DNA of 64,000 nt. It comes from Escherichia coli (GTDB lineage Bacteria; Pseudomonadota; Gammaproteobacteria; Enterobacterales; Enterobacteriaceae). Shown here in pieces: positions 25,807-27,907 of the stretch (the stretch's first letter is position 1; each line of letters opens with the position of its first letter). A program made the translations under genes and the position numbers. A model generated the notes under the pieces. That model searched no databases and was not told the origin of the DNA. It saw only the letters and a program-made list of their open reading frames with translations. Location: assembly GCF_002854065.1 (NCBI RefSeq), contig NZ_CP024147.1; one strand, given 5' to 3'.

Positions 25807-26871
25807 TTACCTAGCGATGAGCGCGAACACGCCCCAGCCAAAGTATTCCCGCGCGTAAGTTACGTGGCGTTTCGGCGAGAGTGATAGCTCGGCCCTGACT
25901 TCGGCGGCGAAGCCGTCGTCAGGATTCGCTTCCAGCCAGCGGCGCATGGTCAGCCATTTCGCGGCTTCATACCGGTCCCAGCCTTCCTGGTCTGCCAGTA
26001 CCATTTCCACCACGTCGTAGCCGAGTTCATCGAACGCGTTGACAAGCCCTGGCAGCGTCAGGAAATCGGTCGTCGAGCTGACGCCGCAGGCCTGGGCAAT
26101 CTCTTCCGTCGCAGGTAGCTGACGCCAGTAGGGTTCGCCGATAAGCATGATCCCGCCCGGTTTCAGGCTTTGAGCCAGCAGCTCGATGGTCCCGGCAAAC
26201 CCACCGGCTATCCATGTCGCACCGACACAGGCAGCCACGTCGCATTTCTCTTCTGTAACATATCCGGCGGCGTCGTTATGTATGAACTGAACCCGGTTGC
26301 TGACGCCGAGCTCTTCTGCGCGGCGTCTGGCCTGCTCGCTGAACAACTGGCTCATATCGATACCGACACCGGTAATGGCGTGGTCCCGGGCCCAGGTACA
26401 GAGCATCTCGCCCGAGCCGCTGCCGAGGTCAAGAATGCGGGTATCCGGCTTCATGCGCAGCACACGGCCCAGCGTGGCGTACTTCTCTTCGGTGAACGGG
26501 TTATGAATACGGTGCTCACTTTCGCTAATTGTAAAAATACGTGGGATATCCAATGTTGAATTCCTTTTATTGCGTTGAGTATGAAGAGGAAGTTCCTCTG
26601 AGGTTTTTGCTTTTTCAGCCAGCAGAGCAAACAGCTTTCCTTCAAATGTCTCGCTGACTGGCCAGTCGTGATCCTGAGACAAATGGTTCGCCATCATGTG
26701 TTGGCTGAAGGCCGGTTCGTCCCAGGGGATTGTACTTTCCTCCGCTGACAGCTGGACGTGTCGGGATGAGGAAATAAGGGGACTGATATCCACCATGCTC
26801 TCCTTAGCGGTTATCAAGCTGAGCGCGGACGTTATGCAGCCCGGTGGTGTTGATTCGGTAGGGCTGGCCAT
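25807..26871 (-). CDS. Class I SAM-dependent methyltransferase
   Basis: Motif [12 protein letters not shown]; the start is probably an internal Met near 26796, overlapping the stop of the upstream toxin gene. Confidence 0.7.
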
Positions 26872-27061
26872 TGACGGACTTGATCAGTTTTTTGGTTTTG
26901 AGTTTTTTGAAGACGGCGAGCGTGCAGTCGGTCAGCAACAGCCCCTCGCGGCTGTAGCATTCAACGGAAGTGACGCGGCCTGAAGAATCGCGGACGTGCG
27001 CAATACGTCCACCTTTAGCGAGAACGTGTAAGGTACGTTGTTCCTGACGGGATAAATTCAT
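26804..27061 (-). CDS. topAI: YjhX/TopAI-family toxin (topoisomerase I inhibitor, UPF0386)
   Basis: 85 aa; sequence [20 protein letters not shown]...[14 protein letters not shown] matches the remembered YjhX family. Confidence 0.7.
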
Positions 27062-27400
27062 ACTGAAGAACCTGTTTAATCATCATGTGCAAAACGTGCA
27101 AACACACAGCGGTGTCCGCATTCGATTTCGGCGCATTGATAATCAGTCCGGCCTGAAAAGGTCGGTAAGCTGATTATCGGATGATTACATTCTCCAGCAT
27201 CAAAGCCTCGGGTTGAGTTGAAAGGTATTTACGGAGCGAATAGTAACACGTAGTTTTAGGAGGGATATGTTTCAGTAGAAAAAGTGTGATGTACTTTGGA
27301 AATTGAATGCCAACCCATATACTGGGAAAGGCAGATGACACTGACGAATGCATGTTGAAGTACGTCAGAAATGGCCTCATCGGCTTTTCCCCTCCGGACG

Positions 27401-27907
27401 TTATTCTCCTTTTGTTAAATCCAGAACATAAATATGCTCACCCTCTTCGATGCCTGAAAAATGAAAGCCAGTCCTGATAAGTAATTTTATTGAAGAGGTA
27501 TTCTCCGGATCCACACCGGCTTTGATGAGTGAAAAACCGTTCTCCTTTATCCAGCCGATGGTGGCGGTAATGGCTTCAAATGCATATCCCTGGCGAGCAT
27601 GAGCGGGGCTGATGGTATAACCGAGCCAAAATACATCGCATTGCTGACGTAAATAGATATCACCAATCAAAACCTGCGTCAGCTTGTTGACGATGGCCAA
27701 TTGAATTCCCTGAGTAAGCGTAAGAACGCCCAGCAATGCTGATTCATAGTCCTCTTTTGTTAGACCCTTAAACCCCTGATATTTCATCCACTCCGCATCA
27801 TTGCGATACACCATAAAACTATCGATTTCGTGTGGCTGAAATGGCCGAATAATGCACCCTGGCGAAATTATTTGCATAAGACTTCCTTTTAAATGATTCA
27901 TCTGCAC
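27401..27907 (-). CDS. GNAT-family N-acetyltransferase
   Basis: Acetyl-CoA binding motif region (RQGYAFEAITATIGWIKENGF). Confidence 0.65.
   Translation of the reverse strand: MQMNHLKGSLMQIISPGCIIRPFQPHEIDSFMVYRNDAEWMKYQGFKGLTKEDYESALLGVLTLTQGIQLAIVNKLTQVLIGDIYLRQQCDVFWLGYTISPAHARQGYAFEAITATIGWIKENGFSLIKAGVDPENTSSIKLLIRTGFHFSGIEEGEHIYVLDLTKGE

Follow-up and report, generated by a model that had tools for sequence, protein, structure and literature searches.

The closest described relative of the element considered here is the toiL-topAI-yjhQ-yjhP operon of Escherichia coli K-12 (Yamaguchi & Inouye 2015, Baniulyte & Wade 2025), in which topAI encodes a toxin acting on topoisomerase I and yjhQ, immediately downstream, the GNAT acetyltransferase regarded as its antitoxin. 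Expression of the K-12 operon is controlled in cis. Within a 171-nt leader, a helix blocks translation of topAI and so leads to Rho-dependent termination inside topAI, while several antibiotic classes relieve the block by stalling ribosomes in toiL, a short upstream open reading frame (uORF); both the Rho termination and the induction by ribosome-targeting antibiotics have been demonstrated in K-12 (PMC12121999). The window analysed here, a 64,000-nt stretch of the E. coli contig NZ_CP024147.1 (assembly GCF_002854065.1), carries a version of this operon with no yjhQ downstream of topAI. We consider it probable that this is a reduced allele of the known operon, in which TopAI is held in check by cis-regulation and no substitute antitoxin has taken the place of YjhQ.

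Anatomy of the operon in the window

The window and K-12 operons agree in TopAI (94% amino acid identity), in YjhP (91% over 248/248 aa, with the SAM-binding glycine motif LDLGSGSG present), in toiL, which is identical and placed at -139, in the fold of the leader, and in the Shine-Dalgarno (SD) sequence that overlaps the topAI stop. They differ in the slot between topAI and yjhP, which in the window holds a 243-nt remnant of another S-adenosylmethionine (SAM)-dependent methyltransferase (MT1) instead of the yjhQ found 11 nt after topAI in K-12, and in the start of yjhP, a TTG in frame with the remnant instead of ATG. All features of the locus, from an upstream GNAT gene to yjhP, are on the minus strand:

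27401..27877 (maximal open reading frame (ORF) to 27907), minus strand: upstream GNAT, PF13302 Acetyltransf_3, annotated coding sequence of 158 aa; a neighbour outside the module
27062..27232, minus strand: topAI 5' leader, its 5' end placed from the 171-nt K-12 leader
27174..27200, minus strand: toiL uORF, MLENVIIR and stop, read from the sequence at the K-12 position
26804..27061, minus strand: topAI, 85 aa, intact (Pfam/NCBIfam)
26662..26796, minus strand: MT1 5' remnant, 45 codons (MVDIS...QDHDW), from alignment to the full MT1 of XJ23PTE1 and others
26662..26670, minus strand: deletion junction with the single surviving copy of CACGACTGG, from the overlap of BLAST segments at the repeat
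26554..26661, minus strand: MT1 3' remnant and interdomain linker, 36 codons, from alignment; no confident fold in the AlphaFold2 (AF2) model
25807..26553, minus strand: YjhP SAM-dependent methyltransferase domain, 248 aa, annotated coding sequence, in frame with the remnant

An earlier, sequence-only reading of this DNA had proposed a TopAI-like toxin gene at this place, and the family searches bear it out: the YjhX/TopAI match spans the full length (residues 1-85), at 141.9 bits for PF09857 against a cut-off of 27 (Pfam) and 156.5 bits for PRK13687 against a cut-off of 99 (NCBIfam). A single residue departs from the family consensus (N76H). The K-12 protein departs from the near-invariant enteric consensus at four positions (R9H, G18R, G74E and N77K), and because of these differences it is the experimentally studied TopAI that appears to be the atypical one. 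By homology to that tested protein (PMC4666372), the window TopAI would be expected to arrest growth and inhibit topoisomerase I. Two further remarks of the same reading hold: the locus departs from the K-12 order topAI-yjhQ-yjhP, and the gene directly after the toxin is a methyltransferase ORF.

A deletion remnant in front of yjhP

That methyltransferase had been described as carrying an N-terminal extension that overlaps the toxin gene. The overlap is real insofar as the maximal ORF, 25807..26871, is stop-free over 354 aa and shares 68 nt with the 3' end of topAI, but the likely start is at 26796 and the extension is left over from MT1. The Pfam domains Methyltransf_31/25/11 are matched at residues 141-260 only of the 354-aa ORF. 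We find it scarcely credible that all 354 residues form a genuine methyltransferase with a functional extension overlapping the toxin gene: the frame is open from ATG 26871, but this codon lies inside topAI with no SD and is not conserved, and the first 25 codons are the 3' end of topAI in another frame, closed by a stop in other alleles. We rejected it as a start. ATG 26796, by contrast, is 7 nt past the topAI stop behind the SD TAAGGAG, and orthologues start at the equivalent position behind the same conserved SD. From it, 329 codons are open to 25807: 45 from MT1, 36 from the MT1 tail and the linker, and the complete YjhP domain. In the AF2 model of this 329-aa product the YjhP Rossmann core is confident and residues 1-100 have no confident fold (pLDDT < 50), which also speaks against a functional extension. 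The protein collection searched contains the 248-aa YjhP but no exact copy of the 354-aa or the 329-aa product. The NCBI annotation pipeline (PGAP) calls only this 248-aa yjhP, from TTG 26553, and leaves a 250-nt gap unannotated. The operon would most likely yield TopAI together with YjhP, the latter either as 329 aa including a disordered N-terminal tail or as 248 aa from the internal TTG, the start codon in use (26796 or 26553) being one that we infer from sequence features.

The origin of the extension becomes apparent from an alignment of the topAI-yjhP slot among E. coli strains, which contains yjhQ in K-12-like strains and, in a few others, about 890 nt encoding the class I SAM-methyltransferase MT1. 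In three such alleles, about 10% apart in DNA, MT1 and YjhP form one continuous ORF of 545 aa; in a fourth a single nonsense codon breaks it. The MT1::YjhP protein (541-546 aa) is also found in Klebsiella, Salmonella, Citrobacter, Enterobacter, Raoultella, Morganella, Providencia, Yersinia and Serratia, with 7336 sequences in a single Salmonella cluster, and in every context examined it starts 4-10 nt after a YjhX_toxin gene, in neighbourhoods that are otherwise unrelated. The YjhP domain of the full-length fusion matches PDB 1NKV at 1.5e-162. In many RefSeq genomes PGAP labels the continuous 545-aa fusion as a 'class I SAM-dependent methyltransferase pseudogene, missing C-terminus' followed by a TTG-started yjhP; because MT1::YjhP is widespread as a continuous ORF after YjhX genes, this split looks like an annotation artefact of a real two-domain fusion gene.

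The 250-nt gap in the window consists of two halves, one matching the first ~135 nt of the MT1 slot and the other its last ~110 nt, and the matching segments overlap at CACGACTGG (His-Asp-Trp), which is present twice in full-length alleles. For this reason we attribute the difference to a loss between two 9-nt direct repeats. Relative to full-length alleles, 651 nt (217 codons) are missing in frame, giving a 329-aa in place of a 545-aa ORF; the Rossmann/SAM-binding core of MT1 (LDLGCGPG...) is gone, and Pfam sees one methyltransferase domain only. The ancestral form would have been toiL and topAI followed by the 545-aa MT1::YjhP, its start lying 7-11 nt beyond the topAI stop, with no yjhQ in front, an arrangement widespread in Enterobacterales. 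Recombination or replication slippage between the 9-nt repeats would then have produced the in-frame deletion in this E. coli lineage, removing the MT1 catalytic core and joining 45 + 36 residual codons to an intact YjhP domain. Judged from the alignments, then, the extension is best regarded as the remnant of a second methyltransferase domain and not as an added N-terminal module.

The loci with topAI and the 545-aa fusion (in Klebsiella, Salmonella, Citrobacter, Morganella, Yersinia and seven complete E. coli genomes) thus have the direct parent architecture, with the same start context, N-terminal 45 residues, C-terminal residues and YjhP domain; they are unlike the window in the 217 codons, including the whole MT1 Rossmann core, that it has lost. 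Klebsiella pneumoniae shares the wider neighbourhood as well (DUF1349, major facilitator superfamily transporter, VOC, GNAT, topAI, methyltransferase, Zn-ribbon). Loci with topAI and yjhP only (Citrobacter, Enterobacter, Proteus, Yokenella, Raoultella and others) have toiL, topAI, a single YjhP domain and no GNAT in common with the window; there yjhP mostly lies 11 nt after topAI with no remnant, whereas the window keeps 243 nt of MT1 debris that is probably translated.

Frequency of the allele in E. coli

Over the 3.1 kb searched around the operon (25400-28500), the window and the chromosome of E. coli VTB96935v are 100% identical. Six independent assemblies agree at every one of the 1614 nt that run from the leader to the yjhP stop, and this agreement led us to reject an assembly artefact. 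Traced by its 248-aa YjhP, the allele is spread over 230 contigs with the exact protein, all examined ones sharing the 250-nt gap and its neighbours. The allele is fixed in a lineage. Outside the slot, yjhQ-like DNA was found neither in the rest of the chromosome of VTB96935v, the closest complete genome, nor on any plasmid of the collection.

The toiL-topAI pair is present in 1772 of 5426 complete E. coli genomes. The slot holds yjhQ in 1656 of these, a full-length MT1 in seven, and the deleted MT1 of the window in one. A further ~108 of the 1772 have a second, 83%-identical topAI copy beside the lsr operon, followed only by a methyltransferase truncated by IS21. In this second toiL-topAI copy (83% at the nucleotide level; next to lsrG in E. 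coli WCHEC005215, for example) topAI is intact with no adjacent yjhQ, and the gene after it is a class I SAM-methyltransferase cut by the IS21-family element.

Slot content across species

With 10 YjhX sequences as queries, a search through a single genome for each species gave at least 577 loci, of which the best 80 were retained, and downstream content could be classified in 56 usable Enterobacterales loci:

17/56: YjhP alone, directly after topAI
4/56: YjhP alone, after a remnant of 77-151 nt
5/56: MT1, then YjhP
8/56: a third methyltransferase family, MT3 (~237 aa)
4/56: YjhQ-YjhP
3/56: YjhQ-MT1-YjhP
1/56: MT1-YjhQ-YjhP
14/56: nothing, or fragments only

Overall, yjhQ is present at 8 of the 56 loci, and a methyltransferase occurs without it at 34. 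Klebsiella grimontii and Hafnia are examples with yjhQ ahead of MT1::yjhP. Direct succession of topAI and a methyltransferase is seen in Salmonella, Klebsiella, Morganella, Yersinia, Citrobacter, Enterobacter, Proteus and Raoultella. The sequence-only reading had named the same gene order in reference genomes as something that would refute it, and outside K-12-like E. coli, in these eight genera, that order is indeed seen; K-12-like strains keep yjhQ. Erosion of the slot is recurrent: an independent and larger internal MT1 deletion brought Raoultella ornithinolytica to the topAI-yjhP arrangement, and R. planticola keeps a 22-nt yjhQ remnant.

MT3 (MNTPYTDSYD...LDLGCGKGISS, locus positions ~2765-3490) is unrelated to YjhP or MT1, lies directly after topAI, and was seen in Enterobacter, Kluyvera, Leminorella, Budvicia and Prodigiosinella. 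At the locus of Serratia sp. H1w, 72 nt from the 3' end of topAI occur a second time, between MT1 and yjhQ (1737-1808), which suggests that slot cassettes may be exchanged by recombination at the topAI stop/SD junction.

Restraint of the toxin

The element that is retained at these loci is topAI with its leader. An intact 85-codon topAI is present at all 54 Enterobacterales loci measured, and its median ratio of nonsynonymous to synonymous substitution rates (dN/dS) relative to the window allele is 0.03-0.09 in every slot class, including loci with no usable downstream gene. Upstream, toiL (ATGCTGGAGAATGTAATCATCCGATAA, 27200..27174) has eight codons and an ATG 139 nt upstream of the topAI ATG (27200-27061), as in K-12 (PMC12121999), and K-12, Klebsiella, Morganella and Yersinia all have this uORF without a change. 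Between the window and K-12 we counted, by eye, 5 differences over the 193 nt of 27040-27232 (the leader and the first 22 nt of topAI). The predicted helix between toiL and the ribosome-binding site (RBS) is the same as in K-12, with minimum free energy and centroid folds in agreement (z = -3.3), and it is kept in the consensus fold predicted from 28 leaders, nearly all of them from yjhQ-less loci. Mean identity to the window, taken over 52 Enterobacterales loci, is 89% for the 160 nt that precede the topAI ATG, compared with 69.5% at topAI third codon positions and 62.5% in the next 160 nt upstream. The leader has no family in Rfam (0 matches at E<=1). Since a consensus promoter and terminator scan of 25300-27950 gave nothing on the coding strand, the transcription start is placed by K-12 homology only.

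With the toiL uORF and the RBS-occluding helix both conserved, cis-regulation is the most likely restraint on TopAI. The toxin would be kept harmless by the K-12-type mechanism rather than by an antitoxin, and topAI expression would rise only upon ribosome stalling in toiL, for example under ribosome-targeting antibiotics. The 14 species loci that keep an intact, selected topAI with no usable downstream gene argue that TopAI requires no adjacent partner. We infer that cis-regulation is sufficient to make yjhQ dispensable.

Several considerations weigh against this interpretation. In K-12, YjhQ binds TopAI and neutralises the over-expressed toxin, rescuing growth (PMC4666372), and outside Enterobacterales what comes after a YjhX homologue is usually a YjhQ-like GNAT or an HD_3-GNAT fusion. 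For this allele, the toxicity of TopAI, the function of the leader and the start codon are all taken from homology; the in-frame outcome of the deletion has a 1-in-3 chance of arising at random and by itself proves nothing. A protein partner could matter once the operon is induced, and a neutraliser acting in trans may be encoded elsewhere in these genomes. The K-12 result remains valid; the comparative data suggest that neutralisation of TopAI by YjhQ may not be a general property of the family in enteric bacteria. Because YjhQ-like GNATs follow YjhX homologues outside Enterobacterales, the association with a GNAT is apparently old, and its loss would be characteristic of the toiL-bearing enteric loci. 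The toiL start pattern had no match outside Enterobacterales (Stenotrophomonas, Azonexus/Dechloromonas, Janthinobacterium, Acinetobacter and Pseudomonas). The fusion, observed at four Pseudomonas/Acinetobacter loci (~2773-3936), is 355-378 aa long and joins an HD_3 phosphohydrolase domain to a YjhQ-like GNAT after the YjhX homologue.

One alternative is that TopAI has its functional partner in YjhP or in the remnant-YjhP fusion, which would neutralise or modify TopAI or its target, methyltransferases having replaced the GNAT antitoxin in most Enterobacterales. In its favour, the methyltransferase starts 10-36 nt past the topAI stop at 30 of the 56 loci, behind the same SD that serves yjhQ in K-12, three unrelated SAM-methyltransferase families (YjhP, MT1 and MT3) recur in the slot, and the deletion in the window kept both the reading frame and the YjhP domain. 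We nevertheless regard it as unlikely: at the 14 species loci with no usable downstream gene topAI remains intact and under purifying selection, three unrelated enzyme families and a GNAT sharing one slot resemble interchangeable cargo more than specific antidotes, and the papers found contain no report of an interaction between TopAI and YjhP. Much less likely still is that the module is simply decaying, with TopAI inactive or unexpressed in this lineage and the missing antitoxin irrelevant. Decay is visible in the neighbourhood (the MT1 deletion, a VOC pseudogene, and an IS2 copy in a nearby Argonaute gene), but topAI is full length and one residue (H76) off consensus, toiL and the leader are intact, and purifying selection on topAI extends across yjhQ-less lineages.

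Beyond the cis-regulation that we favour, a broader possibility, tentative but somewhat better placed than these alternatives, is that toiL and topAI form, instead of half of a toxin-antitoxin pair, a sensor of translation stress or antibiotics driving an exchangeable cassette of enzymes that modify small molecules or proteins (the YjhQ GNAT, YjhP, MT1 or MT3) and are swapped at the topAI stop/SD junction. YjhQ would then be optional cargo, and the methyltransferases might modify the molecule sensed through toiL or modulate TopAI or topoisomerase I; the window, if so, would be a natural yjhQ-null, MT1-null genotype. The ermC and ermB systems offer an analogy, in which a short uORF senses ribosome stalling and unmasks a downstream RBS, with SAM-methyltransferases in the operon (PMC12121999). 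They are unlike the present operon, where the first regulated gene is a topoisomerase inhibitor and no NCBIfam resistance-enzyme cut-off is reached; none of MT1, YjhP and YjhQ receives an above-cut-off functional assignment from NCBIfam. To our knowledge, no resistance function is known for any of these three proteins.

The upstream acetyltransferase

The sequence-only reading had correctly pointed to a GNAT about 340 bp upstream of the toxin gene on the same strand: its maximal ORF is 27401..27907 (PGAP start 27877, 158 aa), 339 nt upstream of topAI. The suggestion that the module had been rearranged does not survive, the upstream gene being no displaced yjhQ and the slot itself holding the MT1 remnant. 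Position and strand would be compatible with this GNAT having taken over the antitoxin role of YjhQ after a rearrangement, an idea to which we give almost no credence. The protein matches Acetyltransf_3 (PF13302) at 1.6e-17, while YjhQ is on the side of Acetyltransf_1/7/9, and BLASTP found no significant similarity between the two (E=1). The gene lies upstream and stops 169 nt short of the site corresponding to the topAI transcription start in K-12, a distance that rests on the 171-nt K-12 leader (PMC12121999). It occurs together with yjhQ in E. coli A41 and Citrobacter amalonaticus, adjoins topAI at only 3 of the 80 species loci and in Klebsiella pneumoniae, and is missing at most topAI loci of other genera. 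On this evidence of subfamily, similarity, co-occurrence and position, a displaced yjhQ was rejected.

Genomic neighbourhood

The topAI locus abuts a defence island, as judged by a prokaryotic Argonaute (pAgo), its partner nuclease and a Septu-like or PDC candidate nearby. The pAgo gene, of class II (long-B), is interrupted by an IS2 (IS3-family) copy at ~21178-22528, which separates a 5' part (22512-24403) from a 3' remainder (~20836-21315). It is intact in VTB96935v (743 aa, PADLOC pAgo_II 9.6e-293), so that the window must derive from a near relation of this strain and not from the strain itself, and it is present in only 1 of the 5426 complete E. coli genomes. The partner nuclease, 19676-20848 on the minus strand just downstream of pAgo, matches the PADLOC Aga Helical-REase at 3.7e-132 and is of the PD-(D/E)XK type; adjoining it, with a feature on the plus strand at 18481-19647, is the Septu-like or PDC candidate, an AAA-ATPase together with a 388-aa PtuB/HNH-like protein. 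No PADLOC model matches TopAI or the upstream GNAT, and the YjhP domain gives only a generic methyltransferase match (mad2).

Downstream of the Zn-ribbon gene lies a decayed VOC/glyoxalase pseudogene with an internal stop (~24988-25380, minus strand); its paralogue, the VOC gene upstream of the GNAT (28022-28414, minus strand), is intact. In K-12-like strains the same pair of VOC relics is found on either side of the locus.

Implications for the toiL-topAI family

The operon is a characterised one, and its deletion allele in the window is ordinary, already present in public genomes and annotated there piecemeal; neither the variable slot nor the MT1::YjhP fusion is described in any paper that we found. 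Its interest is in what it reveals about the family. Only within E. coli does the order topAI-yjhQ prevail; in Enterobacterales as a whole it is topAI and its toiL leader that are strongly conserved, yjhQ is usually missing, and a methyltransferase is usual. This enteric pattern is hard to square with an obligate toxin-antitoxin relationship and, taken with the variable cassette, fits the proposal by Baniulyte and Wade of a different function for the operon, connected with what toiL senses. This lineage, Salmonella, and the species with no usable gene after topAI are natural genotypes that would allow the parts played by YjhQ, YjhP and MT1 to be told apart.

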